Position numbers and translations under genes: made by a program
The notes under the pieces: model-generated
Database searches by the model: none
The model's input: only the letters and a program-made list of their open reading frames with translations
What the model was told of the DNA's origin: nothing
Shown here: piece by piece, positions 4,886-24,010 of the stretch
Layout: each line of letters starts with the position of its first letter
How positions within the stretch are numbered: the stretch's first letter is position 1
Source of the DNA: an uncultured Cohaesibacter sp.
GTDB taxonomy: Bacteria > Pseudomonadota > Alphaproteobacteria > Rhizobiales > Cohaesibacteraceae
Length of the DNA: 32,000 nucleotides
Assembly (NCBI GenBank): GCA_963667045.1
Contig: OY762934.1
Coordinates: forward strand, 904,510 to 936,509
Direction: 5' to 3'

Positions 4886-4910
4886 CCCTGTTCTCTGCTC
4901 AACAAAGCCA

Positions 4911-6896
4911 TCATGCCGTTCCAGCAGCCTCCTTGGCGCGCCCCTTTCGGGCCGGAGCACCAATTCGCAACCGGCGATCCGACAGCGAGAAGCATCCGCC
5001 AATAAACATCACCACGCAGCCGAGCCAGATGAAGGTTACCCATGGCTTGTAATAGATCCGGACACCAATGCCATCATCGTCTTGTTTGTCGCCCAATGAA
5101 ACATAAAGCTGGGTGACGCCACCAATCGTATAAATTGCCGTTTCGGTTGTTGGCATGTTGCGCGACGTATAGACCCGTTTTGCGGGATGAAGCTCCGTGA
5201 CCTCCTTGCCATCTTTCGTGACCTTGAAAGAGCCGATGAGATCAACATAGTTGAACGCGGAATGCTCGCGAAACCCGCCGAGTTCAAAGCTGTAACCTGA
5301 GACGGTAGCATGATCGCCCGGCTTCATGACCAGAATGGTTTCAGATTGATAGGCACTGGCAACAATAAGACCAAGCAGGGTCATACCAAGGCCAAAATGA
5401 CCAAGAGCTGCACCGAATACTGTGCGGGGCAATCCAACGAGGCGAGAGACAGATTTCGCGATGGGAAGCTTGAAAAGAGCGATGCGGAGAACAATCTCGG
5501 CCAGTGCACCGACCATGATCCAGACGGCAAGACCAATGCCAAGCGGTGCCATCGCACTACCACCATCGATCAGAGCGTAGCAAAGGACGGTAACAAAGAT
5601 CGCCGCACCCAAAGCAACGAAAAGGCGCTGGAACGCAGCAAAAAGATCCCCCCTTTTCCATGCAAGAAGCGGTCCGATCGGCACGGCAACAAGCAGTGGT
5701 ATCATCATCAGGCCAAATGTGGCGTTGAAGAAGGGAGCGCCAACGGAAATCTTGGCCCCTGTGATTGCTTCAAGCGCCAGAGGATACAGTGTTCCGATCA
5801 AAACAGCAGCGGCCGAGGCCGATAGAAAGAGGTTGTTGAAGACCAGCGACCCTTCGCGCGAAATGGGAGAAAAAATCCCTCCCTGCTTCAGCATCGGCGC
5901 TCGCCATGCAAACAGGGAAAGACCTCCACCGATGAAGGCAATCAGCAAGGCCAGAATAAAGACACCGCGAGAAGGATCGGTAGCAAAGGCATGCACGGAT
6001 GTCAGCACACCGGATCGCACGAGGAAGGTTCCGAGCAGCGATAGCGAGAAAGTCAAAATGGACAAAAGAATGGTCCAGACCTTCAGCGCCCCTCGCTTTT
6101 CCATGACGATTGCCGAATGCAGCAAGGCAGTACCACACAACCAGGGCATGAAGGAGGCGTTCTCGACAGGATCCCAGAACCAGTAACCACCCCAACCAAG
6201 TTCGTAATAGGCCCAATAGGATCCCATTGCGATGCCAAGGGTAAGAAGCCCCCAGGCAGTCAGCACCCAAGGCCGTACAAATCGCGCCCATGCAGCATCG
6301 ATCCTCCCTTCGAGCAGAGCGGCAATGGAAAAGGAGAAGGCAATGGAAAACCCGACATAGCCAAGATAGAGCAGCGGCGGATGGATAGCGAGGCCGATAT
6401 CCTGCAAGATAGGATTGAGATCCCGTCCTTCAATCGGTGCATTGGCAATGCGATGAAACGGATTGGACGTGAGGAGCACAAACAGAAGGAATGCGGACGT
6501 TATCCATCCCTGTACTGCCAGCGTATTGGCTTTGAGCTTAGGAGGTAGGTTGCGGCCAAATGCCCCGACAAGGGCACTGAAGATAGCCAGAATAAAGACC
6601 CAAAGCAGCATCGAGCCTTCATGGTTGCCCCAAACCGACGTAAACTTGAAAAGAAGCGGCATCTGCGAATGGCTGTTTTCCCAAACATTTTGAACAGAGA
6701 AGTCCGAAGTCACATAGGCGTTGGTCAACGTTGCAAAAGCCAGGCCGATGAGCAAAAATTGCAAAATCGCAATAGGACTCGCCACGGCCATCAGGCGGTT
6801 GTCATCTGTCTGTGCCCCCCAGATGGGAACGACGGACTGTATCAACGCCAGGGCAAGAGCTAGAACAAGCATGAAATGCCCCAATTCGATGATCAT
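4911..6896 (-). CDS. ccmF: cytochrome c heme lyase subunit CcmF (CycK)
   Basis: Polytopic membrane protein with the tryptophan-rich WGGYWFWDPVEN motif. N-terminus MIIELGHF is typical of CcmF. ATG 6896 has GGGAG 8 nt upstream. Confidence 0.95.
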   Translation of the reverse strand: MIIELGHFMLVLALALALIQSVVPIWGAQTDDNRLMAVASPIAILQFLLIGLAFATLTNAYVTSDFSVQNVWENSHSQMPLLFKFTSVWGNHEGSMLLWVFILAIFSALVGAFGRNLPPKLKANTLAVQGWITSAFLLFVLLTSNPFHRIANAPIEGRDLNPILQDIGLAIHPPLLYLGYVGFSIAFSFSIAALLEGRIDAAWARFVRPWVLTAWGLLTLGIAMGSYWAYYELGWGGYWFWDPVENASFMPWLCGTALLHSAIVMEKRGALKVWTILLSILTFSLSLLGTFLVRSGVLTSVHAFATDPSRGVFILALLIAFIGGGLSLFAWRAPMLKQGGIFSPISREGSLVFNNLFLSASAAAVLIGTLYPLALEAITGAKISVGAPFFNATFGLMMIPLLVAVPIGPLLAWKRGDLFAAFQRLFVALGAAIFVTVLCYALIDGGSAMAPLGIGLAVWIMVGALAEIVLRIALFKLPIAKSVSRLVGLPRTVFGAALGHFGLGMTLLGLIVASAYQSETILVMKPGDHATVSGYSFELGGFREHSAFNYVDLIGSFKVTKDGKEVTELHPAKRVYTSRNMPTTETAIYTIGGVTQLYVSLGDKQDDDGIGVRIYYKPWVTFIWLGCVVMFIGGCFSLSDRRLRIGAPARKGRAKEAAGTA

Positions 6897-6995
6897 TGAC
6901 AATCTCCCGGTTTTGCGTACTCGCCACTTCAGCAAGCTGACTTAGTCTATTTTATTGTTCTTCGAGGCTCTATCGCAAAGCGTGTTCCCGATGCG

Positions 6996-7451
6996 TCAGT
7001 TCGCTCGAACCTTGCCGTAGCTGTCCTGCCAGTGGCCCTGCTCCTTCAAAGCGTCGGCCACTTCGCGAGGCATGTAATTCTCGTCATGCTTGGCAAGCAC
7101 CGTATCTGCCGTGAATGAGCCATCAGCATTGAGAGCCCCTTCGGTCACGACACCCTGTCCTTCCCGGAAAAGGTCTGGCAGAATACCTGCATAGGCGACC
7201 TTGATTTCGGCCCCACCATCGGTGACGACAAATGTCACATGGGCGTTGTCAGAACGAACGACAGAATCGTCCACGACCAAGCCACCCAGACGGATGCGCT
7301 GACCCGGCTCAACGCCTTTTTCCGCAATTTCCGAAGGGCTCATGAAAAATGTGATCTGATTTTGCAAAGCAAACAAAATCAGTCCGACGGCAGCGAAGAG
7401 GACAGCACCGGCAGCCCCGATCAGCATCATCCTTTTTTGTTTTCTCGACAT
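6996..7451 (-). CDS. ccmE: heme chaperone CcmE (CycJ)
   Basis: 151 aa with an N-terminal membrane anchor, an OB-fold region and a C-terminal [10 protein letters not shown] containing the heme-binding His. Confidence 0.95.
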
Positions 7452-7526
7452 GAACAGATCCTTCTTGTCATCGCCTGATAGTAAGAAACTTGATTTGCCA
7501 GCACCCTTTTCCCGGATGCATCGAAA

Positions 7527-8735
7527 CTATTGAGTTATGGAGACACCGAGTGAGCGCGCGGCTGCTTTGACTTTCTCTATGCCTTCCACGTCGGACTGAA
7601 GAGCATCCAATGCACGGGTCACCGTTTTTGCTGCCATATCAGGCCGATTCAAAACCAGCTCGGCCCTGATCAAACGAACCCATTCATCTGGCGTGCCACC
7701 ATCAGAATTCAGCCGCTCTGCAAGATTCGAGACCATGCCTTCGATCATCTGCTGTCTTTCTTCCGCAGTCATCTCGGCAGCATTCTGCACATCCTCTTTT
7801 GAAGGATTGGCCAATCCGCTGCCAGATTCGGCAGAAGAAGCATACCCGTCTTTTCCTTCAGCCGGCGACGCAAGGCGCTTTTCAAGAGCAGCAATCTGAT
7901 TCTTGGCAAACGGAATCCACGGGGCATCCTCAGCAGAATCATCTACCAGTTCCTGCCATTTCTTTATAGCTTCCCGCTCCTGTCCTACCTGCCCTAGAGC
8001 GATTGCCAGAAAGAAACGAGGCTTGGGAGCTGTCGCGTCCAACAGATTGGCGCGCTGGAACAATTCCTGAGCTTCTGCATTGACGACGCCTGCATCTTGT
8101 ATAACGAGAACTTCGCCGAGATCAGACAAGGTCTCTACACTTTCGCCTTCGATCCGCAAGATGTTCCGATAAGCCACGATAGCATCTTCTGTTCGCCGCA
8201 TACGCGCATAAATTGGCGCAAGTCTCTTCCACCCCACTAGATCATCTGGATTGCGTGCAAGCTTTCTTTCCGCCGATGCTACCAGTTCGGTTAGACTCTG
8301 CTGCTCAGGCGGTTTTGACAAACGACGCTGCAACGGCTGGCTTTGCAACCCCGGAGAGCCCAACGCAAAATAGAGGCCCGAGGACAACAACGGTATCAGA
8401 AGAGCGATTACGACAACCGCAAATTTGAGATTGGACGTGCCCGAGTCTTCTTCAGAGGATAAAGCGTCGCGATTCGGACGCATCTCGCTACTTTCCTTGT
8501 CGAGCGCATCCTGAGCACCAATCAAGCGACGAGCGACCTCGGCCCGTGCAGCATCGGCCTCAGCCTCGTCAATCAGCCCACGTTCGACATCACCATCGAT
8601 TTCCTTTAGCTGAGACTTGTAGATCGTGAGATCATAAGCGTTTGCACTCTCAATCTTGCGTTCTTTTCGCAATAGAGGATAGATCGCAACAGCCATGGTC
8701 ACGAGGGTCAATACGACAGCAATTGTCCAAAACAT
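7527..8735 (-). CDS. ccmI: cytochrome c-type biogenesis protein CcmI (CycH), TPR-containing
   Basis: 402 aa. Two N-terminal TM segments separated by a charged loop, then a TPR-like periplasmic domain. It is the first gene of the ccmI-E-F-H block, in cycHJKL order. Confidence 0.85.
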   Translation of the reverse strand: MFWTIAVVLTLVTMAVAIYPLLRKERKIESANAYDLTIYKSQLKEIDGDVERGLIDEAEADAARAEVARRLIGAQDALDKESSEMRPNRDALSSEEDSGTSNLKFAVVVIALLIPLLSSGLYFALGSPGLQSQPLQRRLSKPPEQQSLTELVASAERKLARNPDDLVGWKRLAPIYARMRRTEDAIVAYRNILRIEGESVETLSDLGEVLVIQDAGVVNAEAQELFQRANLLDATAPKPRFFLAIALGQVGQEREAIKKWQELVDDSAEDAPWIPFAKNQIAALEKRLASPAEGKDGYASSAESGSGLANPSKEDVQNAAEMTAEERQQMIEGMVSNLAERLNSDGGTPDEWVRLIRAELVLNRPDMAAKTVTRALDALQSDVEGIEKVKAAARSLGVSITQ

Positions 8736-8920: not shown

Positions 8921-10315
8921 CTACCCGACCTCAGCGACCTGAAGCTCCTTGACTGTTGCGGCTGCATTCAGCTGCCGCTTGAAGGCATTCGCGTAGTCTT
9001 CATCAAAAACATTTCTGGCCAGATCAACCGCTGCAGAATGAAGCTTGGCAATCGTCTCACTTCCTGCCGACTGTCTGGTTCTCTCCACAAGTGATGTGGT
9101 GAGGATTTCAAATGCTTGATCCAGCTCCTTGCGAGCATCGCTGATGGGGCCATTCATGGCCAGATAGTCCTTTGCCAGCTCGGCCTGATGGAAAATCTTT
9201 GCAGCCCTGATAGCGTCGGCTACAAGATCCTCATCCACGAGTTCCTCTTCCGTATTCTTCGGAGCCCGCAAAGCGCGGCGAACCAATCCGGGCACAGCCT
9301 CAACGTCCTTCTTCAGAAGTCCAGACATTTTCTTCTTCATATCTGTAAGCGTTTTGCCCCAAGCACTTTGGGCAGGCAACTCAAGTTCAACGGAAACAGC
9401 TTTTGCGAGCTTGGTCCATTGAGAGAAATACTTTAGCGCCTCATCAAGGCTGGAATGCTCTTGCATATTAGCTTCGACCAAGGCGGTCAGGGCGTTCATA
9501 TCAGCAAAGACTTGATGAACAGCTGGTGCATACACAGTCGCAGCGACCTGAACAGCATCGTCTGATCCTGAAAGCTTTGTGGCCAACTGAAGTTTTTGAC
9601 GCGGCGAGGCAAGCTTTTTGGAAAGCGCAGACACTAGCCACGATGTTCGGAGTGGTGCCTGCTGGATATATCGAGAGATAAGCTTGTAGGCCTCTTCGCC
9701 TTCTGGGCTGGTCCAGCTATCGATCTCTGTATTCAAACGCCCTAGTAAGGGCTTCAAGGGCATCAGTCGCTCAGAACTGATCAGAATGTCAAGAAGATCC
9801 TTATAGACGATCTCGCCACCCAACTGGTTGGCAAGCTTCTGCTCCCCTGCCAATTCTCGCGACATCAGCTTAAGCTTCTTTTTAATGGAAGCGACAAACT
9901 CAGCACAAAGTGCAGATGAATGCCTGGAGATTTCCTGCTTTTCTATTGCGCTGCAATCCATCTGCAGTTTTTGTGTTTGCTCGGGTGTCGCAATATCTCT
10001 CTTGATCCAATTCCATATAGCCTCAAAGGATAATGGATTGATTCTGGCTTCCTGTTTGGCAACCAGTTCATATTCGCTTGCAAAATAACGAGCGTCTCTG
10101 AAGAAATCCACTTTGGCGAATTCTTCCAGCGGGACGACTTTCTCTTCCACGTTCAGAATATCGCGTAAGGCGGCAACAATGAGCGCTGCCGCAGCGTCAT
10201 TCTTACCCTCTCTCTCTGCCTTTTCCAGATTCCGCAGGAGAAGATTTTGGGCGTTTTCCGACAGCGTCGAGAGATAAAGCTTGAGCTTTTCCTTTAGCTT
10301 TTCCATGCCATCCAT
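8921..10315 (-). CDS. hypothetical protein, predicted all-helical, no recognisable domain
   Basis: 464-aa ORF with ATG 10315 and a GGGGTG SD-like element upstream. K/E/L/A-rich, with no TM segment or signal peptide. Local GC is visibly lower (sampled 43-55%) than the flanking genes. A terminator candidate and an AT-rich region lie upstream of it. Confidence 0.7.
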   Translation of the reverse strand: MDGMEKLKEKLKLYLSTLSENAQNLLLRNLEKAEREGKNDAAAALIVAALRDILNVEEKVVPLEEFAKVDFFRDARYFASEYELVAKQEARINPLSFEAIWNWIKRDIATPEQTQKLQMDCSAIEKQEISRHSSALCAEFVASIKKKLKLMSRELAGEQKLANQLGGEIVYKDLLDILISSERLMPLKPLLGRLNTEIDSWTSPEGEEAYKLISRYIQQAPLRTSWLVSALSKKLASPRQKLQLATKLSGSDDAVQVAATVYAPAVHQVFADMNALTALVEANMQEHSSLDEALKYFSQWTKLAKAVSVELELPAQSAWGKTLTDMKKKMSGLLKKDVEAVPGLVRRALRAPKNTEEELVDEDLVADAIRAAKIFHQAELAKDYLAMNGPISDARKELDQAFEILTTSLVERTRQSAGSETIAKLHSAAVDLARNVFDEDYANAFKRQLNAAATVKELQVAEVG

Positions 10316-13409: not shown

Positions 13410-13736
13410 TCACTTGCCGTTTACTGAAATGACACTTCCCGATCTGGCATCCAGTTCGAGGCGAGACACATTGCCCTGCCGCGATAAAATAACCAACTCA
13501 TAAACCAAACGCCCACCGTCCGAGCAAAGATTCGCCTTGATCACGTCACCGCGCACGACCGCATTGGCCGCTTGCGTGATCGCAACCAGACTTTTCGCCC
13601 GACCGTCGGATATCGCCTGCCGAACTGCTCCGCCACCAAGGCATTCTGCCGCTGTGGCAGGTTCGCCCGGAACGAGAAGGGAGACAATCAGCAGAGCCAA
13701 TACCCGGAGAGCACAGATGTTGATCCATTTTTGCAT
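13410..13736 (-). CDS. secreted PepSY-like domain protein, first gene of the two-component operon
   Basis: 108 aa with a signal peptide (LVPGEPATAAE), then a PepSY-like pattern (GDVIKANL...RLVYELVILSRQGNVSRLELDARSGSVISV). The small periplasmic protein + regulator + kinase layout resembles feuN-feuP-feuQ type operons (architecture only; homology unverified). Confidence 0.7.
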   Translation of the reverse strand: MQKWINICALRVLALLIVSLLVPGEPATAAECLGGGAVRQAISDGRAKSLVAITQAANAVVRGDVIKANLCSDGGRLVYELVILSRQGNVSRLELDARSGSVISVNGK

Positions 13737-13758
13737 GAAGGCAATTTATCGTCAGGTC

Positions 13759-13776
13759 GCTGAACCGAAGCTGAAC
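13759..13776. promoter_or_regulatory. perfect 7-bp direct repeat GCTGAAC-cgaa-GCTGAAC (11-bp period) upstream of the PepSY/RR/HK operon
   Basis: Read directly from the sequence. It lies 23-40 nt upstream of ATG 13736. The geometry fits tandem winged-helix regulator binding. Function is inferred only. Confidence 0.25.
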
Positions 13777-13831
13777 GCAATTCGAGACGCCCAGAGGCGC
13801 GAAACTGGCTGAAAATATCGTTAAAGTCCTC

Positions 13832-14083
13832 CTACTTACCACAGTAGCGCACGATTTTCTGGTTGTGTCGCTTGATTTCAAAAATGGTTTGATCGGTGTC
13901 TTTGGCTGACCATGAGATCGGATCGAAGAGAAGGCAGGCCGCCAGTTTACCAGCCATCTGGTTGCCAATGGAGGAACTGTCCAGTGTTGTTGCCTCACCC
14001 CCTCCGGAACCCATCTGAGCTGCGCAACCGGTCAAGGCCGTCATCACGATGACCATCAGCCAATTCCTTTTCAACGGGATCAT
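13832..14083 (-). CDS. small lipoprotein, o-spanin-like, overlapped with the upstream ORF
   Basis: ATG 14083 with GGAGG 3 nt upstream. Signal peptide plus lipobox (MIPLKRNWLMVIVMTALTGC). 63-aa mature protein with two further Cys. It starts inside the 13995-14291 ORF in another frame (89-nt overlap), the arrangement seen for overlapped Rz/Rz1-type spanin pairs. Confidence 0.55.
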   Translation of the reverse strand: MIPLKRNWLMVIVMTALTGCAAQMGSGGGEATTLDSSSIGNQMAGKLAACLLFDPISWSAKDTDQTIFEIKRHNQKIVRYCGK

Positions 14084-14291
14084 TTTCCTCCAGCCTTTCA
14101 GACGCCCCCCATTTGGCATTCATCAATTGTTCCAGCAGCTTGTCTGCGTCTGCTTTCCAGGAATTATTCTTGCCAGCAGCGGGTACCCGTTTTGTCGGTT
14201 GCTCTGGTTCACTGTATCGGGTGAACAGTGAAGCCAGCATCGGAGCCAGCTTCACCAGAAGGCTTAAAACCTTCAAGATAACTGCTACCAT
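13995..14291 (-). CDS. 98-aa N-terminally anchored charged protein, i-spanin-like
   Basis: Internal ATG 14291 of the 159-aa track ORF, 5 nt after the preceding stop. Hydrophobic N-terminus MVAVILKVLSLLVKLAPMLASLF, and the rest is highly charged (KADADKLLEQLMNAKW...EENDPVEKELADG). No SD, so translation would rely on coupling. The coding status is the weakest of the trio. Confidence 0.4.
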   Translation of the reverse strand: MVAVILKVLSLLVKLAPMLASLFTRYSEPEQPTKRVPAAGKNNSWKADADKLLEQLMNAKWGASERLEENDPVEKELADGHRDDGLDRLRSSDGFRRG

Positions 14292-14296
14292 GCTGG

Positions 14297-14506
14297 CTAA
14301 AGCAGCTTCTTGGTTGTATACCAAGTGCGCCAGATGATCGTGGCCGCAGCGGCTAGGCTGGAGATGGTCATTGCCAGACGCTGCTGAACATCGGGATCCA
14401 GATCGACCCCAAACATGGTCAACCCCATTGCAGCCACGGAAACAATCTGGGTCCAGTTGATTTTGGATTCCCAAGCTGGTTTGGATGACTGGTTCGTGTC
14501 ACTCAT
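14297..14506 (-). CDS. 69-aa two-TM membrane protein, class II holin-like
   Basis: ATG 14506 with AGGAG 6 nt upstream. Two predicted TM helices (IVSVAAMGLTMFGV and LAMTISSLAAAATIIW) and a basic C-terminal tail (RTWYTTKKLL). SKxNW...LxP...RTxxTT resembles small holin-type proteins of alpha/beta-proteobacterial phages, recalled from memory and not searched. Confidence 0.55.
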   Translation of the reverse strand: MSDTNQSSKPAWESKINWTQIVSVAAMGLTMFGVDLDPDVQQRLAMTISSLAAAATIIWRTWYTTKKLL

Positions 14507-14576
14507 GCAAAACTCCTGTTAGTTGAGAGGAAAGAATACGCCCGGTTAGCCGGACACAACAAAGCAGACTTCAGGT

Positions 14577-17500
14577 TCAAGCCCGGATGGAAAGCGTCGA
14601 GGGATTGACGCGCCTCAGGAGACGATCCCCAGCCCCGGTTCGACGGCTGACCTGAGCGATATCAAGGACAATATCGGTGAGGTCTTCCACCCCGTCTTCG
14701 ACCTGTGCACTTGCCGAATACTGCCAAACCGAGGCGTTGAGTTCGGTGGTTCTCAGGGTTTTGCCGGTATCGGGGTGGCGGACAGATACGCTATAGACTT
14801 CAAGTTCTTCGCTCAGCGGAATGATACTGTCGACCCAACTGTCTGCATCAAGGCGATCTCTCCGGATCCAGCTGAAGGTCAGGGTGCCCTCCGCTTCTGA
14901 ACGCAGGACACGCAAGTGCACTGGAGACAGCGGAACCAATCCCCGCCCGACAATTCCTATATCGAGATCGATATTTCTAGGATCCGACAGGGCTCCTCCG
15001 GTAGGAACAATCCTGAAAGGCAGTGTCTTTGCCAATTGAGCGGTATCGATTTCGACTGGCATGACGGCCTCGTCCAAAAGGACGAAACGAGCACCTGCCC
15101 CTGCCCCCTTCAGCGCGGCCGCTTCAGTTCCCAGTTGCCCCCGCAGCAGGGTCTTCAGCCGCCACAGAGATGGTCCTATCAATTCAGCATCGGCAAACTG
15201 CAGGATTTCCCAAGTCCCTTCACTGGATTCGATTGCTGCTGCATTTGTTCCTGCAAACAGGCTGGATTGATCGACGGAAGCCAGATCGCCGCCCGAGAGT
15301 TTAACTTCAACGACGCTCGCATGATCCCAACTGAAGCATTCCTGCCCCGCCAGGTCAGTTTGCAATGTGCCAATGACTGCCGACACCCTGAGCGTTTGCC
15401 GATAAGAGAAGCCAATGTCACGGCTTCCCTCATAGAGCCCCAACCCGCCCGGCCAAGGTGAGCAATAGCTCGCCAGGTACGGCGCATGAGGATAGCCGGT
15501 CTTGCCGGGCAACAATGGCAGATCAAGGACCACGCAGACGGGAAGAACGACAGAAGGCGTTGAATGCGACGTTGCGCGGATATTCTGAGCATAGGGAACC
15601 GCATTGCGGGGCGCCATCAGACTGGCCGAAATTTCCCGAGCATCTCCATCCTCGATATCATCGATCCGATAGACTTGCTGATAGCCTTGCGATTCTATGG
15701 AAACCAGATCGCCAGCTTCCAGATCCAGCTTTGACATCGGGAGCTTGAAGCTGGCTGTATGGCGCGCGTAATTGCTTTGCCTGAGCCAGTTTCTTGCCGC
15801 ATCGACCATGACAGGTTCCGTGGAAATGACAGCAAGGGATTGTGCGCTTTCCAGCTTCGTCCGGGCGCTTGGCTGATCATAACGGGCCACCGATTGCCGG
15901 TAGTCCTGAAACAGCTCGTTGAAGGAGAATGTGACACTGCTGGACTCATTTTCCCAAGGGTCGATCCGTTTACTGACAAGAGGTTCCTCTTCCACATCGA
16001 CAAGCAAGTTTTCATCGATAGCCGCAGAAATTCGTCTGTCCCGCTTTTCAAAGCGAAGCCTGTCGCCGCTTGTGATGAAGGAAATATTGAAGGCATTGCA
16101 GAGGTTCTCAAGCGCTGAACGCAGGGACATGCGTCGCTCGATGACAAATCCGTCGACGACGGCGGTGATGGCGTTCAGATCAGGAGCATCAAGGCCGTAG
16201 TCTTCCATCACCGTCTTGATGATATCCTGAAGCGGCGCATTGCCCAGACGACCGTTGAGCCAATGGCCGGTGTACCAGGCATCTCCGTCTGCCCAGGTCG
16301 CACGGCTCAGAGGAAATGCAGGAAATGGCCGCCCGTCCCAGGCCCACAGATACATCTGGTCCGTATCCACCATGGTGCCGCCATAAAGAGCGGACACGGG
16401 ATTTCTATCGACACCATCCCCCTGCCAATAATCAAGACTTGCTGTCAACATCGAGCGCTGCGCCGCATCGCTGCGTGCGCCGGTTGAAAAATACGGCAGG
16501 GCACTTTCCGAAGACTTTGCGTCCGGAAAGACATTGGGCTGATTGGGTCCCATATGGACGGCAGGGCATCCAAGTTCTGTAAACCAGATCGGTTTGGAAC
16601 ATGGCACCCAAGACGTTGCGGATGTACTTTCCGCACCGTCTGGCCGATCAAAATGCAGGTTGGACCACCAGCTTACCAGATCCTTGTAGCGGAAAACCCA
16701 ATCCTTGCCCTCTGCTCTGTCGGTGATCGGCGTTCTGATCTGTTTCTCCCGATCTGTACCGCTGGCATAGTACCAGTCGAACCCCTCGCCTCCGGCAACA
16801 TTGCCTTGCAAGTAGGCCGTCTCCAGCCCTGTATCGGAAACTGACGCATCCAAATGGGATTCGCCCACCCGCCAGTCAGACAGGGGCATGTAGTTGTCGA
16901 TGCCGACCGCGTCGATATTGTCGTCAGCCCACAACGCATCGAGATGGAACCGCACGGTTCCGCTGCCATCCTGAGGATGATGGCCGAAATACTCGCTCCA
17001 GTCTGCAGCATAGGTGAGTTTCGTGCGTCCGCCGAGTACATTGCGGACGTCAGCTGCGAGCTCCTTTAGGCGAGCAACAAAGGGATAATCACCTTCTGCG
17101 TCACGCAGTTGTGTCAGTCCTCGCAGCTCCGAACCGATCAGGAATCCGTCCACCCCGCCAGCGTCAGCGGCCAGCTGAGCGTAGTGCATGACAAAGCAGT
17201 GATAGTTCCATTCCTGCAGATCGTAGAATTGAGTAACTTGTTCTGCGGCCGCTGCGGTGTTGTCAACCGACCCGTCCTGATCAGGTCCGGGATAGCACGT
17301 GATCCGCCCTCGCCACGGAAAAGCCGCCTGCTCTCCGGCTCCATAGGGATCGGCAAGACCATTGTCCGCAGGAATATCCATCATGATGAATGGATAGAGG
17401 GTCACTTCCAGTCCACGTTCCCTGATCGCGGCAATCGCGTGCAGAACAGACACATCTGACGGCGTACCGCCATAGGCAGGGCGTCCGTCGGTAAGGCTGA

Positions 17501-18455
17501 CCCGCTCGACCTCGGATCGGGTCAAACCAGCCACCGACCACTGGCTTGTGTCTGTCACCTTGGTTTCATCGTCAATTTTCGGCTGGATAGCACACTTGCC
17601 AGCTCGAAGATCGGAACCGAACCAGGAAACCACAAGGGCGACACGGATAAGGTTCGGGCAGAGTGCGATCAGATGATCGAGCGATACCTCAAAATCGGTT
17701 CCTGGTTCATAGGAGTGCCTGTTTTCCGAACTCCACTCGCCCTCGGCATCCTTGCGCGACACCTCAGTAGTGTCATAGCCGAACTCGGTCGCACCGGGGA
17801 TCATCACGACCGATCTCACTTGTGTCTCCAGCGCTCCGATTGGCCTTACGACCTCAAAGGACAGCTGCGGAATCCGGTTGCCGAAGTCCTCCAGCGGCAA
17901 TTCCTCAAACACCACATAGGCCAGGCCGCGATAGGCCGAAGCCTTGCCAGCACCCTGCTTGGCTTCAATCAGACTGTCGGGAAGCTGATCGTCCGTTCCG
18001 CGATACACCCGGTAGGTGATGTCATCGAGATCCAGAACTGTGCCATTGGCCCAAATGCGACCGATATAGGCAATCTCACCTTCACACAGACCAACAGCAA
18101 AATTGGCTGAATAGCTGTAGGTGGTCTCGGTGGTCGTCGCCCCCATGCCGCCCTTTGACGCGCCGGTCTGTCGTTTTCTCGAGGTGACTTCCTCAACAAG
18201 GTTGGTCGCCCAGATAATCTGCCCGGTCAAGCGGGCTCGGCCATAGAGGCGTGGAATAGACGCTCCTTCCGTCGAGGTCTGCACCGTCAGGTCGGAAAGG
18301 CTCGAGCCAACCACCGAACGCGAGGAGCCAAAAAGCTTCTGATCGACATAAGCGCCACCGACAGCACCGAGAGCTCCACCTATTGCAGCCCCCAGCGGTC
18401 CGAACAGGGCACCGCCGACAACGCTGCCCGCCGTTTTCAAAACAAGAGTGGTCAT
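14577..18455 (-). CDS. g15: GTA host-specificity / baseplate multidomain protein (RcGTA g15 type)
   Basis: 1292 aa with an N-terminal glycine-zipper segment (GGALFGPLGAAIGGALGAVGGA). Size and position after the NlpC/P60 gene are typical of RcGTA g15 (TIM-barrel-like plus phage-tail domains). Its ATG overlaps the g14 stop (ATGA at 18452-18455). Confidence 0.92.
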   Translation of the reverse strand: MTTLVLKTAGSVVGGALFGPLGAAIGGALGAVGGAYVDQKLFGSSRSVVGSSLSDLTVQTSTEGASIPRLYGRARLTGQIIWATNLVEEVTSRKRQTGASKGGMGATTTETTYSYSANFAVGLCEGEIAYIGRIWANGTVLDLDDITYRVYRGTDDQLPDSLIEAKQGAGKASAYRGLAYVVFEELPLEDFGNRIPQLSFEVVRPIGALETQVRSVVMIPGATEFGYDTTEVSRKDAEGEWSSENRHSYEPGTDFEVSLDHLIALCPNLIRVALVVSWFGSDLRAGKCAIQPKIDDETKVTDTSQWSVAGLTRSEVERVSLTDGRPAYGGTPSDVSVLHAIAAIRERGLEVTLYPFIMMDIPADNGLADPYGAGEQAAFPWRGRITCYPGPDQDGSVDNTAAAAEQVTQFYDLQEWNYHCFVMHYAQLAADAGGVDGFLIGSELRGLTQLRDAEGDYPFVARLKELAADVRNVLGGRTKLTYAADWSEYFGHHPQDGSGTVRFHLDALWADDNIDAVGIDNYMPLSDWRVGESHLDASVSDTGLETAYLQGNVAGGEGFDWYYASGTDREKQIRTPITDRAEGKDWVFRYKDLVSWWSNLHFDRPDGAESTSATSWVPCSKPIWFTELGCPAVHMGPNQPNVFPDAKSSESALPYFSTGARSDAAQRSMLTASLDYWQGDGVDRNPVSALYGGTMVDTDQMYLWAWDGRPFPAFPLSRATWADGDAWYTGHWLNGRLGNAPLQDIIKTVMEDYGLDAPDLNAITAVVDGFVIERRMSLRSALENLCNAFNISFITSGDRLRFEKRDRRISAAIDENLLVDVEEEPLVSKRIDPWENESSSVTFSFNELFQDYRQSVARYDQPSARTKLESAQSLAVISTEPVMVDAARNWLRQSNYARHTASFKLPMSKLDLEAGDLVSIESQGYQQVYRIDDIEDGDAREISASLMAPRNAVPYAQNIRATSHSTPSVVLPVCVVLDLPLLPGKTGYPHAPYLASYCSPWPGGLGLYEGSRDIGFSYRQTLRVSAVIGTLQTDLAGQECFSWDHASVVEVKLSGGDLASVDQSSLFAGTNAAAIESSEGTWEILQFADAELIGPSLWRLKTLLRGQLGTEAAALKGAGAGARFVLLDEAVMPVEIDTAQLAKTLPFRIVPTGGALSDPRNIDLDIGIVGRGLVPLSPVHLRVLRSEAEGTLTFSWIRRDRLDADSWVDSIIPLSEELEVYSVSVRHPDTGKTLRTTELNASVWQYSASAQVEDGVEDLTDIVLDIAQVSRRTGAGDRLLRRVNPSTLSIRA

Positions 18456-18931
18456 GATGCTCCTTTCCCGGCCACGTCATTCAGCCGGAAGGATGGAAAG
18501 GCATAGACGCCGCACAAATGCCGCTGCCACCAAGGTGAGAAGGACACCAGACTGACGCAAGCCCCGGCCTGCGCATGGATAAACCGGCTGTCATCGAACA
18601 GAATGCCGGCATGTTTGGCGGGAAACCCTTTTCGATAGCGAAACAACAAAACATGGGCTGGTTGCCGCGCCCCAGCATCAACAGGCTGCAAATACCGTCC
18701 GGCAGCATTGGCCAGCGTTTCTTCGCCGTCGGCATCAGCCCAATCCGGATTATAGGCAGGCGGTGTTTCGAGTATCGGCCAGAAGGCGCCATAGACCCCG
18801 CGTATCAGGCCCAGACAATCGCAACCAGCCCCTTTACAACAGGCCTGATGCTTGTAGGGGGTACCGATCCAACTCATGGCCTCTTCAAGGATCATCGCCG
18901 CACTTACAGATAGTCTTTCTGTGTCAGTCAT
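18452..18931 (-). CDS. g14: NlpC/P60-family phage cell-wall peptidase (RcGTA g14 type)
   Basis: 159 aa. Catalytic Cys context GAGCDCLGLIRG and a downstream His (KHAGIL). In the canonical g14 position. Confidence 0.92.
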   Translation of the reverse strand: MTDTERLSVSAAMILEEAMSWIGTPYKHQACCKGAGCDCLGLIRGVYGAFWPILETPPAYNPDWADADGEETLANAAGRYLQPVDAGARQPAHVLLFRYRKGFPAKHAGILFDDSRFIHAQAGACVSLVSFSPWWQRHLCGVYAFPSFRLNDVAGKGAS

Positions 18932-18934
18932 GGG

Positions 18935-19828
18935 CTAGTCCTCGAAAAGCGCAGAGCCGTTACTTTGCTGGGAAAGCTCAGGATAGGTCAGGATGAAATC
19001 GTTGCCCGGCATGTGGGGGAAACCGCGAAAATTGAGCTGATTGGCAAACACGGTCCGGCAGGTTGCAAAGCTTTTGTCACACCCGACGAAAACCTTCACG
19101 CGATCGCCGACCTTGATGCCGGAATGAACTGGCAGCCAGAGCTCTACCAAATCCTCAGCACCTGATTGTTGATGGGAGAGAATGTCAAACGCCATGTCCT
19201 TTGCTGCCCCGGATTGGAGCAGCATTTGCCCCATGGCAAGCCGCCCGGCTTCAGGCTGACTATCAAGTGTCAGTTCCAGCCATGTTTGCGACAAGATTGC
19301 GGTTACCTCGCCCTCAAAACTCAACCCCAGAGCATCGAGATCAAGAGTGCAGCGGGTATCTCCCACATTGGCGTCGCAGCGATATTGGTAGACACGCCCC
19401 TTGTCCTGTTCCATATCGACAGAGAGGGAGCGGATCTCTGCCTGAAAATTCTGGCTGTCCCGCTTGATCTCGCCCAGATACCCGCTGCGCAGCAAAACGG
19501 CCTGCTCTGGGTCCTGCCAATTCACACGCCAGGTCTCGATTGTCGCGGCATCATAGCGTCCGCTCATGAGATCCGCCTCGGTGATGCGATCCGAAGAAAG
19601 CGCTCCGGCAACGTCCTGATCGTCGCTGGCAAATCCGTCGCTCTGACGAATTTCAGAGCCAGTGAAGCCCGCATCTGGTTCACAAGAAATGCCTTGCAGC
19701 TCTATTGGTCTGTCGTGATCGGTAAATCCGAGAGCGAAGCCATCAGAGCGCTTGAGAATCCAGCATGTGGCAAGCGTCGTAACACCGCTCGCAAGATGGG
19801 CAGCCAATGCATTGGGAAGAGTCTTCAC
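18935..19828 (-). CDS. g13: GTA tail hub protein (RcGTA g13 type, DUF2163 / BR0599-like)
   Basis: 297 aa. N-terminus LPNALAAHLASGVTTLATCWILKRSDG is typical of this family. GTG start overlaps the g12 stop (GTGA at 19825-19828). Confidence 0.9.
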   Translation of the reverse strand: MKTLPNALAAHLASGVTTLATCWILKRSDGFALGFTDHDRPIELQGISCEPDAGFTGSEIRQSDGFASDDQDVAGALSSDRITEADLMSGRYDAATIETWRVNWQDPEQAVLLRSGYLGEIKRDSQNFQAEIRSLSVDMEQDKGRVYQYRCDANVGDTRCTLDLDALGLSFEGEVTAILSQTWLELTLDSQPEAGRLAMGQMLLQSGAAKDMAFDILSHQQSGAEDLVELWLPVHSGIKVGDRVKVFVGCDKSFATCRTVFANQLNFRGFPHMPGNDFILTYPELSQQSNGSALFED

Positions 19829-20451
19829 AGCTTGATCTCCACCAGTGGGATGGTTGGAATGTCGCCAGCTTCAAAGGCACTGAGGGAGAACTCGAGCTTG
19901 TCGATGTCAAAGCGGACCGGCACATCGAATTTGAAGCCTGCGGTAATCATCACTCCTGTGAGAGGCGCTTCATCAAAGGTGATAAGCCCGGTCTCCAGAT
20001 CAAGCGAAAAGGCGGTCGTTTCACCCCCGTCGAGTGCGACCCTTACCGTGTCAGCAACCGGCTTACCAATTTTCCTCTGATAGGGAGCGTGGAATGCGCC
20101 ATAAGTCTTTAACAGCTGAAAGCCGGTTTGTTCCCCATCGCCGCTGCCGATGACCTGATCGATTGACTGCGGCACTTTGCCGACAGCACAGGAAGCATGG
20201 TCAAAGGGGTCGCGGAAACGAAAGCCATAGAGCCGCCCGCGCCGTTCCTCGAAAAAGGCGATGACCGTTTGCAGATCGGCAAAGGAGCGGACACCAAGCC
20301 CGGCATCATAGCTCCGCCGTGAATCGGCCCAGCGGGCGTTTCGTTCCTCAAAGCCGGAGGCAAGGGTTACCACATCCGTTCGCCGCTCCGGGCCACCAGA
20401 CGCGCCGAACCCTACATCGAGCGGGAAGCATATTTCATGAAATCCAGTCAT
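19825..20451 (-). CDS. g12: GTA distal tail protein (RcGTA g12 type, DUF2460-like)
   Basis: 208 aa. MTGFHEICFPLDVGFGASGGPERRTDVVTLASGFEERNARW matches the conserved N-terminus of the family. In the canonical position. Confidence 0.9.
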   Translation of the reverse strand: MTGFHEICFPLDVGFGASGGPERRTDVVTLASGFEERNARWADSRRSYDAGLGVRSFADLQTVIAFFEERRGRLYGFRFRDPFDHASCAVGKVPQSIDQVIGSGDGEQTGFQLLKTYGAFHAPYQRKIGKPVADTVRVALDGGETTAFSLDLETGLITFDEAPLTGVMITAGFKFDVPVRFDIDKLEFSLSAFEAGDIPTIPLVEIKL

Positions 20452-20471
20452 TGACTTGTTCCGATTGATAC

Positions 20472-20508
20472 AAAAAAGGGGCCGTTTCCCTTCACTGGAA
20501 GTAGCCCC
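20472..20508 (-). terminator. intrinsic-terminator-like hairpin between g11 and g12
   Basis: Minus-strand RNA: GGGGC-UAC-UUCC-AGUGAAG-GGAA-ACG-GCCCC followed by UUUUUUG (plus-strand A run at 20472-20477). Confidence 0.45.
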
Positions 20509-20577
20509 GCCTGCCGTTGCATGTCACATTGATAAGAGCCGAGCGCTTCAAAAGGCGCTATGCAGCGTCGCCCCGAT

Positions 20578-21180
20578 TCAAAGGCCGCGGCGCCCGCGGC
20601 CAACCACCCGTGCCAGTCGGGTTGCGATCTGGTTTTCCGACTTTGAAAACGAGCTGACATCCGGGGTGCTGATATTCATGACGATGTTGACCGCCTGTCC
20701 GCCACCACCCGGCATGGCAACGCCGAGCCTGCCGTCGGCACCGCGCTGAAGCGGCATGATCGCTTCGGCCCCAGCCTCTCCCATGAGTCCGGTGCCTGAG
20801 CCTGTCGGGAAGAGCGAAGGCGTCGAAACCACACCACCCTTGGCAAAAGGGGTCAGCCCCCCCAAAAGCGAGGCGAGCCCACCACTGCTGGAGGAAGTGA
20901 GCGAAGAGAAGAGCCCTGATGCAAGACTTGAGACAGAACCTGACAGGAGTTGCCTGAGCGGCTCCAATCCGGCACTGAGAGCACTTTTGCTAAGATCCTG
21001 AGCCAGACGGCTGAAGACATCCTCAAGGCTCTTGCCCCGAACAATGGCATCTTCAAATGCATCGGCCACCTTGTCGCCGAGCCTGTCGGCCTGTTTCTGA
21101 GCCGCCGTCAGGTCTTTGGTGAAGGACTTCATGTCCGCTTCGACCTTGACGACGGCCGTTTCCACGACTTCATCAGCCAT
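20578..21180 (-). CDS. g11: short GTA tail tape measure protein (RcGTA g11 type)
   Basis: 200 aa. Conserved FAKGGV...GLMGEAGAEAIMPLQRGADGRLGV block. The short length is characteristic of GTAs as opposed to siphophages. Confidence 0.88.
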   Translation of the reverse strand: MADEVVETAVVKVEADMKSFTKDLTAAQKQADRLGDKVADAFEDAIVRGKSLEDVFSRLAQDLSKSALSAGLEPLRQLLSGSVSSLASGLFSSLTSSSSGGLASLLGGLTPFAKGGVVSTPSLFPTGSGTGLMGEAGAEAIMPLQRGADGRLGVAMPGGGGQAVNIVMNISTPDVSSFSKSENQIATRLARVVGRGRRGL

Positions 21181-21246
21181 GAGTGTTCCCTTTCCTCTTG
21201 CCTTTCGCAGGCAAGAAAAGCATTCGGTTTTAGGCTGGACGCCTGA

Positions 21247-21474
21247 CTAGTCAGGAAATGCTGCGCAGAGCAGATCCAGGTCCAGGCGACTGAGGTTGTT
21301 GGCCCGCTGCCCTAGGAGGGAACCGGCCATCAGGATTTCCGTAGGCGTGGCCGCCCAGATTGTTTGTGGCGTCCAGCCGAGACGCTGGCTTGCCAGTGCA
21401 AACAGAAAAAGCCAGGGGAACTTGGTAGCACTCGAGGCCGATCCTCCAGAGGTGGACCGGCCTATGTGGGGTTT
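21247..21474 (-). CDS. g10.1: tail assembly chaperone extension (RcGTA g10.1 / rcc01693-family), -1 frame relative to g10, probably made as a g10-g10.1 frameshift fusion
   Basis: My own translation of the -1 frame: ...KFPWLFLFALASQRLGWTPQTIWAATPTEILMAGSLLGQRANNLSRLDLDLLCAAFPD*. The FPW...LGxxPxxxWxxTPxEL pattern is that of the g10.1 family. The frame is open from 21504 but has no ATG/GTG/TTG before the conserved block; the only ATG is 26 codons from the end. Absent from the supplied ORF track. Confidence 0.6.
   Translation of the reverse strand, partial: KPHIGRSTSGGSASSATKFPWLFLFALASQRLGWTPQTIWAATPTEILMAGSLLGQRANNLSRLDLDLLCAAFPD
21436..21474 (-). promoter_or_regulatory. candidate -1 programmed ribosomal frameshift signal (slippery A-AAC-CCC + 5-nt spacer + hairpin)
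   Basis: The g10 zero frame reads CCA AAC CCC ACA TAG, so the heptamer AAACCCC (21474-21468) is in X-XXY-YYZ register. A 5-nt spacer ACAUA follows, then a 27-nt hairpin (21462-21436): GGCCGGUCC-A-CC-UCU-GG-A-GGAUCGGCC, 11 bp with one G-U pair and one mismatch. Confidence 0.55.
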
Positions 21475-21818
21475 GGCAAGGATTGCCCTCCAGTTGCAGC
21501 ATCTTCAATATCCGGGCTGAAAGTCTCCCTGAGCAGATCGACCAGTGCCGTAGTCAGAGTGGCGGCTCCCCCCTTGCAACGCATGGCGGCGGCTTCAGCG
21601 TCCGAGATCTCAGCACCACCGGCCCGCAAGGCGGCACCGAGGATCTTGATGAGATCACCACTCCGGACCCTGCCGCCTGAAAAGCGTTCGGCAAGAGATC
21701 CGATATTGTCCAATTCCATGCTGTCTTCCAGTTCGGCGAGCGCTGCAAGGGTCAGGCACAACCTGTAGGTCTGATCGTCAAGGCAGATAGAAATTTCGCC
21801 GCGTCGTCTGTTTACCAT
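21462..21818 (-). CDS. g10: GTA tail assembly chaperone (RcGTA g10 type)
   Basis: 118 aa. MVNRRRGEISICLDDQTYRLCLTLAALAELE is typical of the 'gene transfer agent family protein' that follows the tube gene. Confidence 0.85.
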   Translation of the reverse strand: MVNRRRGEISICLDDQTYRLCLTLAALAELEDSMELDNIGSLAERFSGGRVRSGDLIKILGAALRAGGAEISDAEAAAMRCKGGAATLTTALVDLLRETFSPDIEDAATGGQSLPNPT

Positions 21819-21828
21819 CAGATTGCCC

Positions 21829-22242
21829 TCAGGCCGCAGTGAAGGTCAGGGCGCCTGCGGATTCGAGCGCCATTTCGAAGGACAGCTCGTTGTCATGCTG
21901 GCCGGAATATTCCAGCGCAGTGATCTGGAACGCCCCCTCAAGTGTACCGAAGTTGGGAATGACGACTTGCCAGCCGGCAATGGTGCCATCAAAGAACAGC
22001 GACCGGATACGCTCATCGCTTTCGCCATCCTTGAAAAGGCCGCTGCCAGACAAGCTGGCGCGGCGACTGCCCGCCCCTTCCAGCAGTTCGCGCCATCGTC
22101 CTGCGGATTCGGAATGGCTGATGTCAACGCTCTCGGCGTTGAAGGAAAGCGAACGGGCGCGCAAACCGGCGACCGTGATGAAGGCATCATCGCCCTCATT
22201 GCGCACCTTGAGCAGAAGGTCTTTGCCTTTCTGTGCAGTCAT
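21829..22242 (-). CDS. g9: major tail (tube) protein, TP901-1 family (RcGTA g9 type)
   Basis: 137 aa. KGKDLLLKV...FITVAGLRARSLSFNAESVDISH pattern of the TP901-1 major tail family. Confidence 0.92.
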   Translation of the reverse strand: MTAQKGKDLLLKVRNEGDDAFITVAGLRARSLSFNAESVDISHSESAGRWRELLEGAGSRRASLSGSGLFKDGESDERIRSLFFDGTIAGWQVVIPNFGTLEGAFQITALEYSGQHDNELSFEMALESAGALTFTAA

Positions 22243-22307
22243 GGAAATGTCTCCTGGAATTTTAAGAAAATGAGGATCCGGTCAATGGGCCTGACCATAT
22301 GGCCAGT

Positions 22308-22730
22308 TCAGTTGGCAAGGGCATCGGTTACCGCCCTGATCTGCATGATGCCCTGTAGCAGATGGTTCTTGCGGTCGGGTCGCCAATCCTGTCGCTCAAT
22401 CTGCAGATTGATCAGAGCATGGTCGGTCATGGGAAGGTGAACGTCCGGGGCCAGCAACTGGGAACGAAGCAGCGCGAAGATCTCCTGCTGCTTCAGGCGA
22501 TCCTCGCTGGCGGTCCAGACCGTGATGGCAATGCGATGTTCGTCCCCCTGTTCCGTCCCGGTGCTCCAGTCACGGGAATAGGTGGTGGTGAGCGTCAGAT
22601 AGGGGAACGGACTGTTGCGCTTGGGCTCATCATAGAGACGAACGCCACCGAGCAGAGCGATCAGGTCATCATTGCCCTTGAGTACAGTCAGGATGGCCTG
22701 TTCCAGTTCTCTGGAAGCCAAAAGCGTCAT
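22308..22730 (-). CDS. g8: tail terminator (RcGTA g8 type, DUF3168-like)
   Basis: 140 aa. LEQAILTVLKGNDDLIALLGGVRLYDE...PFPYLTL is typical of DUF3168 proteins. Confidence 0.88.
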   Translation of the reverse strand: MTLLASRELEQAILTVLKGNDDLIALLGGVRLYDEPKRNSPFPYLTLTTTYSRDWSTGTEQGDEHRIAITVWTASEDRLKQQEIFALLRSQLLAPDVHLPMTDHALINLQIERQDWRPDRKNHLLQGIMQIRAVTDALAN

Positions 22731-22984
22731 GATTGCCTCCTTATGTAGGCCAATTCCTTCAGCAGGCTGGCAAGTGGGGCCGCGGGCGCAATATCCCTGT
22801 CACCGAAGGTGTCGCGCACCAGCCCGTCGCCGTAGAGGTGCAACTCCGTTCGTCCATCCGAGCGGGAGGTCTCGACAGTCAAGTCTAGCCCCTGCGACGC
22901 TGCCGCAGCTTCCAGCCCTTCGGCCAGGCCGGCAACACGCGCGGACAGGATACGGTCGGCAAGCCCAGTTACGTGGCGGCTCAT
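22727..22984 (-). CDS. 85-aa hypothetical protein inserted between g7 and g8
   Basis: Its ATG overlaps the g7 stop (ATGA at 22981-22984) and its stop overlaps the g8 ATG (ATGA at 22727-22730). Amino-acid composition is balanced, unlike the Arg/Pro-rich alternative frames. There is no counterpart in the canonical RcGTA gene list as I recall it. Confidence 0.6.
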   Translation of the reverse strand: MSRHVTGLADRILSARVAGLAEGLEAAAASQGLDLTVETSRSDGRTELHLYGDGLVRDTFGDRDIAPAAPLASLLKELAYIRRQS

Positions 22985-23316: not shown

Positions 23317-23390
23317 GGGAGTAAGGCCAGCTTGTGCCAACGCACCCTCCTTGTTGCAGTGGAAACAGATTTCGTTTCTCTTGAAACGAG

Positions 23391-23951: not shown

Positions 23952-24010
23952 ATCGACACCATTGCAAATGAAACAGTCAAGACATCTGACGATGCAGCTG
24001 ATTCAATGAA

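Follow-up and report, generated by a model that had tools for sequence, protein, structure and literature searches.

Particles of the type first known as the gene transfer agent (GTA) of Rhodobacter capsulatus, RcGTA, leave their producer cells by routes that are known for two systems. In R. capsulatus, release is holin based (rcc00555/rcc00556), and the lysis genes of the Rhodobacterales form an endolysin-holin locus that lies far from the head-tail cluster, between cycJ (ccmE) and a heme-lyase gene (Hynes et al. 2016). This locus has its own GafA/CtrA-dependent promoter, and the papers that we consulted treat it purely as an endolysin-holin pair, with no mention of a spanin. In Caulobacter crescentus, an RcGTA-related GTA is released by an entirely different mechanism, the CARD-NLR-like system LypABC, which involves no holin or endolysin homologues and leads to non-explosive, ghost-cell lysis. 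Here we describe a locus from an uncultured Cohaesibacter species in which three small genes, a candidate holin gene followed by a candidate pair of spanin genes, stand directly behind the last structural gene of an RcGTA-type cluster. The analyzed DNA, hereafter the window, is a stretch of 32,000 nucleotides (nt) of contig OY762934.1. Holin-based release of an RcGTA-type particle, as in R. capsulatus, is presumed for Cohaesibacter as well, with the difference that the holin gene and the spanin genes are encoded in cis. We consider the trio, at the 3' end of the cluster, likely to be a lysis module of phage origin, most likely one that releases the particles. A search of the literature yielded no report that links spanins to any GTA or gives them a role in GTA release, and a brief search yielded none of GTA activity in Cohaesibacter.

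The trio lies immediately downstream of g15, and all four genes are on the minus strand. The product of g15 (14577..18455; stop at 14577) is the "megatron" baseplate protein of 1,292 amino acids (aa), with matches to the Pfam families GTA_TIM (E = 8e-141), Phage-tail_3, and Rcc01698_C. Gene 1 (14297..14506) begins 70 nt past the g15 stop, behind a Shine-Dalgarno sequence (AGGAG) 7 nt ahead of its ATG. It encodes 69 aa with two hydrophobic segments (residues 18-36 and 43-60) and a short basic C-terminal tail, TTKKLL, that holds only two lysines, features that make it a candidate class-II-like holin. Gene 2 (13995..14291; 98 aa), the candidate inner-membrane spanin subunit (i-spanin), starts 5 nt past the TAG of gene 1. 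Given this short gap and the lack of a Shine-Dalgarno sequence of its own, gene 2 is probably translationally coupled to gene 1. Its single hydrophobic segment (residues 1-25) is followed by 73 residues, among which are 13 lysines and arginines and 16 aspartates and glutamates. Gene 3 (13832..14083; 83 aa), the candidate outer-membrane subunit (o-spanin), has a Shine-Dalgarno sequence (GGAGG) 3 nt ahead of its ATG and, in the +1 frame, begins within gene 2, so that the two genes overlap by 89 nt. A preliminary description, made from the letters of this DNA, had pointed out the three co-oriented genes 70 nt past g15, the two transmembrane (TM) segments, basic tail, and AGGAG of the first, the hydrophobic N terminus, charged remainder, and 5-nt gap of the second, and the lipobox (LTGC), GGAGG, and 89-nt overlap of the third. 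Translation and hydropathy bore out all of these features.

The three genes are conserved in all of the Cohaesibacter lineages examined. The order g15, gene 1, gene 2, gene 3, PepSY gene, response regulator gene, and histidine kinase gene is the same in six of six distinct Cohaesibacter lineages, between most of which synonymous divergence is saturated. Because all three genes have been kept over such distances, we judge from their sequences that they are real genes and not chance open reading frames (ORFs). The ratio of nonsynonymous to synonymous substitution rates (dN/dS) was 0.03 to 0.29 for gene 1 and, in the single unsaturated pair, 0.09 for gene 3 outside the overlap. Gene 2 evolves fast (dN/dS of 0.4 to 1.1), and its frame, TM segment, AKW motif, and C-terminal motif are always kept. 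The overlap between genes 2 and 3 varies from 68 to 116 nt among lineages, the +1 offset is invariant, and the distance from the lipobox cysteine codon to the gene 2 stop is 29 nt in all six. Comparison with relatives, which the preliminary description had proposed, thus found the trio past g15 in every lineage and the 98-aa frame intact in each. Gene 2 or gene 3 has often been missed by gene callers in Cohaesibacter genomes; overlapped spanin genes are commonly overlooked in this way (Kongari et al. 2018). Scanning a genome collection with a single g15 fragment returned one locus, that of C. haloalkalitolerans.

Gene 1 belongs to a family whose matches and neighbors are those of holins. Its motif, KPAWESKINWTQ...FG.DLD...Q...TIIWRTW(Y/F)T, is the signature of a protein with 22 homologues in Cohaesibacter. 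Holin PHROG 34682 was matched by 19 of 21 genus members (best E = 3.9e-5), and a second holin PHROG was matched by 16. An exhaustive profile search extended the family to 296 clusters at an E value of ≤1e-3, with the shared motif SKINWTQ...FG.D....Q...T.I.RTWFT. When 64 diverse members were compared with the PHROGs, every match at E ≤ 1e-3 was to a holin family (best E = 1.7e-7). The sole recurrent Pfam match of the family was a weak one to Holin_SPP1 (0.002). Gene 1 of the window matched no Pfam family at E values up to 1, and thus also not the one named for a three-TM GTA-release holin. Searches of cultured-phage genomes with gene 1 and two family members (tblastn) gave nothing significant, and sequence searches of the PDB with the gene-1 and gene-3 families gave spurious matches only.

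The genomic settings of the family point in the same direction. Three members (P0043, P0064, and P0158) carry the gene-1 domain at the C terminus of a muramidase, with muramidase domains of three unrelated kinds (Phage_lysozyme2, Glyco_hydro_19, and Phage_lysozyme). Scanning viral contigs with a narrow gene-1 alignment identified 29 contigs that encode relatives, and within 2 kb upstream of these relatives there were endolysins of at least eight Pfam types, including Phage_lysozyme, GH108, Amidase_2, GH25, and M15_4. Downstream, there was often a protein with an N-terminal TM segment and then an overlapped lipoprotein. The full order of gene-1 family member, N-terminal-TM protein, and gene-3-family lipoprotein was found at loci L090, L091, L096, L102, L103, L123, L137/138, and L150. 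Together, the holin-only PHROG matches, the endolysin context, and the muramidase fusions support the view, first put forward in the preliminary description, that gene 1 encodes a holin-family protein; its predicted function is that of its context.

Some further loci with members of this family are worth recording. A fusion of the two-TM domain to a muramidase is also encoded at 3389-4249 of L096. In L106, L114 (4224-4628), and L118 (4153-4644), the gene-1-family holin is followed by a lipoprotein of 130 to 160 aa with a C-terminal TM segment, the architecture of a unimolecular spanin, which there replaces the two-gene module. Two metagenome contigs (L125 and L126) carry a g12-like DUF2460 gene that is about 50% identical to g12 of the window. 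Directly after that gene, within 1.2 kb, comes a lysis cassette: an M15-like peptidase, a homologue of gene 1, and a TM protein with DDRLRRNDGAWQ at its end. The C-terminal TM segments of lysozymes in the gene-3-type viral loci described below (e.g., L010, 3129-3860) were considered as gene-1 relatives and rejected, since hidden Markov models (HMMs) of gene 1 gave no match in 80 such loci.

Gene 3 can be placed by direct homology. Its product begins with MIPLKRNWLMVIVMTALTGC, and hydropathy indicates a signal peptide that ends in the lipobox LTGC with the cysteine at position 20. The alanine at position +2 is not an inner-membrane retention residue, and an outer-membrane lipoprotein is predicted. 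A lipobox is present in all six lineages (LTGC, LNGC, LTSC, LMSC, or VTAC), and the mature protein has two cysteines (positions 50 and 81), both invariant. The conserved C-terminal domain reads C..LFDPISWS.KDTDQTI.EIK.HN.KIV.YC. Over its full length, gene 3 matched PHROG 1275, annotated "Rz-like spanin" (E = 6e-7). The AlphaFold model was too poor for a fold search (predicted local distance difference test [pLDDT] score of 53). A motif scan of viral contigs identified 148 relatives, each a short lipoprotein with the pattern ...LTGC..(10-20 aa)..C.VW.PISWSKKDTDQTI.EVK.NNARR.AWC. Family members also occur in cultured phages, namely in MN988461-MN988463 and MN988472 (Rhizobium phages RHph_TM27A/B, TM29, and TM3_14A), ON014757, and OM681334, where the genes are annotated as hypothetical or left unannotated. 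In Microcystis phage yong2, the match falls in an unannotated stretch just after a "lysozyme" gene and a hypothetical gene. Both of the annotated phage records that gene 3 matched directly have a lysozyme just upstream.

The viral relatives of gene 3 also supply a counterpart for gene 2. In most of 80 gene-3-type viral loci, the lipoprotein starts inside the upstream gene with a +1 overlap. The upstream partner is about 76 aa long, has an N-terminal TM segment, and ends in a tail of the type RLR(D/E).DGHRRD. In the great majority of these loci its stop lies 29 nt past the lipobox cysteine codon, the same distance as in Cohaesibacter. The partner family matches PHROG 1026, also annotated "Rz-like spanin" (E = 2e-7 to 6e-10). 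Across 53 nonredundant viral loci in which the upstream sequence was long enough, 51 endolysin-domain ORFs were found within 1.5 kb upstream of the spanin module: 32 with Phage_lysozyme, 10 with Glyco_hydro_19, 6 with Peptidase_M15_4, 2 with GH108, and 1 with Amidase_2 domains. Gene 2 itself ends in the motif DRLRSSDGFRRG, and the tail that it has in common with the phage partners can be written RLR..DG[FHY][RK]R[DEG]. We built a position-specific scoring matrix from the 12-residue C termini of the viral i-spanin-like proteins and scored it against a background of 1,208 C termini. The five distinct Cohaesibacter gene 2 tails took ranks 1 to 5, with scores of 17 to 32 bits; the tail of the window's gene 2 scored 29 bits, and the best background C terminus that was not from gene 2 scored 4.1. 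A single N-terminal TM segment is kept in all six lineages, as predicted for a type II inner-membrane protein. Gene 2 has no cysteine, which together with the two of mature gene 3 gives the commonest class among 526 spanin pairs (Kongari et al. 2018).

Given the tail motif, the TM segment, and the invariant registry, we regard gene 2 as the likely counterpart of the phage i-spanin-like gene and claim no global homology between the two. The PHROG 1275 match of gene 3 and the +1 overlap and 29-nt registry of the phage module likewise support the earlier suggestion that genes 2 and 3 form an overlapped two-component spanin module of phage type. The closest described parallel is with overlapped-spanin cassettes of phages (P2 LysB/LysC type; PHROGs 1026 and 1275), which have the same order of holin, N-terminal-TM protein, and lipoprotein with an embedded start. 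The PHROG 1026-1275 module comes from uncultivated phages of alphaproteobacterial type and from Rhizobium phages RHph_TM27A/TM29/TM3_14A. It agrees with the Cohaesibacter pair in the 29-nt spacing from stop to cysteine and in the pattern of zero and two cysteines, and gene 3 is a member of its o-spanin family. Unlike the phage module, the Cohaesibacter trio has no endolysin gene adjoining it, its spanin subunits are longer (98 versus about 76 aa and 83 versus about 63 aa), and it is located in a chromosomal GTA cluster with host flanks rather than in a phage genome.

A lipoprotein and a small TM protein could also serve the envelope in other ways, in recipient capability, exclusion, or envelope maintenance instead of lysis. 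Some lipoproteins encoded beside phage lysis genes act in exclusion or virulence, as do Bor of lambda and Llp of T5, and gene 3 has a very weak TrbH-like match in NCBIfam (E = 0.15). Such a function is very unlikely here, however, as the steady placement of the module behind endolysins, the fixed-registry partner with its N-terminal TM segment, and the spanin and holin PHROGs make up the signature of lysis genes. The lipoproteins with C-terminal TM segments that follow some gene-1 homologues, in the manner of a unimolecular spanin, also argue against it.

Lysis genes behind g15 are not peculiar to Cohaesibacter. We scanned viral contigs with an alignment of the g15 C terminus and obtained 474 relatives, from which 80 loci were retrieved. 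Most of these loci end at or soon after the g15 stop; 27 extend at least 900 nt past it, a sample biased toward predicted viral boundaries that extend past g15. In seven of the 27 (L223, L226, L235, L237, L268, L269, and L280), a protein of 435 to 460 aa with a GH108 domain and a C-terminal TM part is encoded 16 to 73 nt past g15. The seven GH108 domains have relatives in the PDB (7dnp/2is5/2ikb-like; E = 1e-29 to 1e-31), and the TM part matches the gene-1 profile in three of the seven. From their domains, these proteins look like endolysin-holin fusions attached to GTA-like clusters. In four further loci (L230, L275, L278, and L232), an endolysin of the GH24 or GH108 type lies within 1 to 3.7 kb of g15. 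At L253 and L232 the set is complete, with an endolysin, a holin, an i-spanin that has the same tail motif, and a gene-3-family o-spanin, and at L256 a fibre gene is followed by a gene-1-family holin. In L199 and L200 (IMGVR_UViG_3300031711_000305 and 3300032954_000739), which carry g12-g15 homologues with 40 to 55% identity, a fibre-like gene with DUF2793 comes after g15, then genes for a glycine-rich protein and for a gene-1-family holin of 62 aa, and the contigs end just past the start of a lipoprotein gene. Published surveys fit this pattern: an endolysin homologue adjoined the 3'-end fibre gene (an rcc00171 homologue) in 6 of 22 large clusters that have one (Shakya et al. 2017).

At L241 (6755-7009) and L243 (6202-6408), a gene-1-family holin (BLASTP to gene 1, E = 0.01; HMM, E = 1e-4) lies 19 nt past g15 and no spanins are present. 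Although their g15 is only about 36% identical, these loci also have the host synteny of the window, with a PepSY-like protein, an OmpR-type regulator, and a kinase. This distribution suggests that the holin has long been resident 3' of g15, with the spanins gained or lost in particular lineages. The compared loci are known from their genes alone and may be GTAs or GTA-like prophages. Across them, lysis-type genes are recurrent 3' of g15, after g15 itself or after the DUF2793 fibre gene. Chance adjacency does not account for this recurrence in unrelated RcGTA-like clusters. Lysis genes also stand beside the structural genes of other domesticated particles, in tailocin (R-pyocin) clusters and in BaGTA, which has a putative lysis cassette inside its own cluster (bgtAB in the bgt cluster). 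These are structural lineages unrelated to the Cohaesibacter cluster. Pyocin lysis cassettes include an endolysin.

What sets Cohaesibacter apart is the enzyme. A muramidase (a GH108-TM fusion, GH24, GH108, or M15-like) is present in most of the other clusters whose 3' end carries lysis genes, whereas among the loci examined only Cohaesibacter has a holin and a two-component spanin without one. The preliminary description had called the arrangement an unusual release module and contrasted it with the lysis genes of R. capsulatus, correctly given as lying away from the structural cluster. The combination of holin and two-component spanin without a muramidase is indeed peculiar, but the presence of lysis genes in cis is recurrent and had already been noted anecdotally (Shakya et al. 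2017). That description was also right in finding no muramidase-type endolysin nearby, and it named g14 as the only wall hydrolase in the vicinity. Domain searches of the major ORFs in the 32 kb detected neither a muramidase nor an endolysin domain of any other kind, and g14 (18452..18931, minus strand; Pfam NLPC_P60, E = 1.9e-5), a tail peptidase of NlpC/P60 type, is the sole recognizable peptidoglycan hydrolase there. One ORF without a Pfam domain (464 aa; 8921-10315, minus strand), located between a 17-kDa-antigen-like gene and ccmI, is kept in all Cohaesibacter loci examined. We considered it as a hidden endolysin and set it aside, as it reads as a soluble helical protein.

These observations raise the alternative that release is self-contained, with the holin freeing the g14 peptidase, or the glycosidase-like TIM barrel of g15, to act as the endolysin so that no separate enzyme is required. 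g14 lies 4 kb upstream of the trio and would need a holin because it lacks a signal peptide, and its RcGTA orthologue, on which tail formation depends, degrades peptidoglycan in vitro (Bardy et al. 2020). Furthermore, many other RcGTA-like clusters have a muramidase right after g15, where Cohaesibacter has a holin and spanins only. An endolysin-less release module in cis would have been derived from the post-g15 muramidase-holin fusions of other lineages by loss of the muramidase, a derivation to which we give little credence. In RcGTA, however, g14 is a structural tail part without which assembly fails, and lysis still depends on a dedicated endolysin. An endolysin encoded elsewhere in the genome, as in the Rhodobacterales, is also the simpler assumption, and we therefore regard self-contained release as unlikely.

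A separate question is whether the trio belongs to the GTA cluster at all. The spacer between g15 and gene 1 contains a terminator-like hairpin (14537..14558, minus strand), a CCGGCTAACCGG stem-loop followed by TTCTTTCC. This hairpin is conserved in two other Cohaesibacter loci (L004 and L005), is represented by weaker or different hairpins in L007 and L009, and is absent from L003. A consensus scan of the 70-nt spacer found no sigma-70-like promoter, a point in favor of linkage to the GTA cluster, and no CtrA-type box (TTAA-N7-TTAA) was found near it. At the other end, no clear terminator follows gene 3 ahead of the PepSY, response regulator, and kinase genes on the same strand (13737-13831 and 13410-13736), and read-through from the trio into the two-component operon could occur. 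The end of gene 3 itself contains a weak promoter-like site (13881-13854, minus strand).

Such a layout could also be that of a relic of another prophage, or of a host-controlled module for explosive lysis, vesicle formation, or extracellular DNA release that lies beside the GTA and is regulated separately, for example with the PepSY and two-component genes. The hairpin and the uninterrupted path into those genes would fit this alternative, as would the distance to the nearest gene-1 relatives outside Cohaesibacter, which are only about 45 to 50% identical. In addition, cassettes from tailocins and phages can be recruited for other forms of lysis. On the other hand, there was no sign of a second prophage around the trio or the cluster in the window. 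Directly downstream of the trio are host genes (PepSY, the two-component system, the 17-kDa antigen, and the ccm genes), and upstream of the GTA cluster are unrelated genes. Purifying selection has acted on the trio across lineages with saturated synonymous divergence, and holin, endolysin, and spanin genes recur at the same position 3' of g15 in unrelated clusters. Taken together, these points make a relic or an independent cassette quite improbable.

Several findings weigh against a GTA release module. In this species the hairpin lies between g15 and gene 1, and lysis in R. capsulatus is deliberately regulated from a separate promoter. A holin and spanins cannot lyse a cell without an endolysin, and there is none nearby. 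Within-genus synteny is weak evidence of functional coupling, because the host genes that flank the trio are collinear within the genus as well. The comparison with holin and spanin families that the preliminary description had proposed gave a mixed result: gene 3 and the gene-1 family were matched, but the window's own gene 1 matched holin PHROG 34682 weakly (E = 0.048), and gene 2 matched no PHROG and had no significant HMM match. Searches of viral ORFs with an HMM of Cohaesibacter gene 2, and of the window with an HMM of the viral i-spanin-like proteins, gave nonsignificant matches only, and a tblastn search of cultured-phage genomes with gene 2 gave nothing significant. The holin and spanin names of the PHROGs matched by the three families are themselves annotations only. 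Finally, the periplasmic part of gene 2 is short and, in prediction, mostly disordered, without a long coiled coil. In the low-confidence AlphaFold2 model (pLDDT of 61 overall), again too poor for a fold search, a helix at residues 2-26 (pLDDT of about 80) is followed by an 18-residue helix (residues 44-61), and about 37 C-terminal residues are predicted to be disordered. We nevertheless favor a lysis module that serves GTA release, a role that the position of the trio suggests, and we presume co-transcription with the GTA cluster and lytic activity as well.

If the trio does act in this way, release would proceed as follows. In the few cells in which the GTA is switched on, transcription would pass beyond g15 into the trio through a leaky or antiterminated hairpin, and gene 2 would be translated by coupling to gene 1. 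The holin would build up in the inner membrane and then permeabilize it, so that a cytoplasmic wall hydrolase could reach the peptidoglycan. This enzyme would most likely come from another part of the genome, as in R. capsulatus, and less likely be g14 of the GTA. Once the wall had been cut, the spanin complex would disrupt or fuse the outer membrane, and the particles would escape.

The cluster to which the trio is attached is otherwise of familiar content. Homologues of the window's genes place the DNA in the genus Cohaesibacter. The GTA genes recognized in the window are TerL, DUF2460 (g12), the hub (g13), NlpC/P60 (g14), and GTA_TIM (g15), and families for head completion, the tail, and a chaperone were found in two collinear Cohaesibacter loci (L003 and L004). 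The flanks of the cluster consist of two-component, ccm, and other host genes. This content agrees with that of RcGTA-type head-tail clusters, which are collinear sets of g2-g15 homologues amid host genes, free of integrase, replication, and regulatory genes of phages. Base composition differs between cluster and flanks: GC content and GC content at third codon positions (GC3) are higher in the head-side GTA genes (0.65 to 0.71) than in the flanking host genes (0.50 to 0.61; 14577-29270 versus flanks), with g12-g15 intermediate. Genes 1 and 3 have GC3 values of 0.64 to 0.66, closer to the GTA genes than to the flanking genes, in sequences too short for these values to count.

Four cytochrome c maturation genes (ccmH, ccmF, ccmE, and ccmI) are located at 4340-8735 of the window, all on the minus strand, about 5 to 6 kb from the GTA cluster and the trio. 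ccmE and ccmF adjoin, with nothing between them; in the Rhodobacterales, the separate lysis locus stands between ccm genes. The proximity may be a trace of an ancestral neighborhood of GTA cluster, lysis genes, and ccm genes.

The Cohaesibacter locus adds a third arrangement to the two known modes of exit of RcGTA-type particles, in which candidate genes for a holin and spanins adjoin the structural genes. The analysis gives names to three poorly described families of small proteins, a holin-like family of about 300 clusters that had no tblastn match in cultured phages and a pair of spanin families whose overlapped genes are regularly missed by gene callers. If an endolysin-less module were at work, it would be the first case of spanin-dependent GTA release, and an entry enzyme of the virion would double as the exit enzyme. 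More broadly, our results suggest that RcGTA-like clusters commonly have lysis genes at their 3' end and that these genes have largely been left unannotated, and such genes bear on the origin of the multilocus GTA "genome" of the Rhodobacterales.

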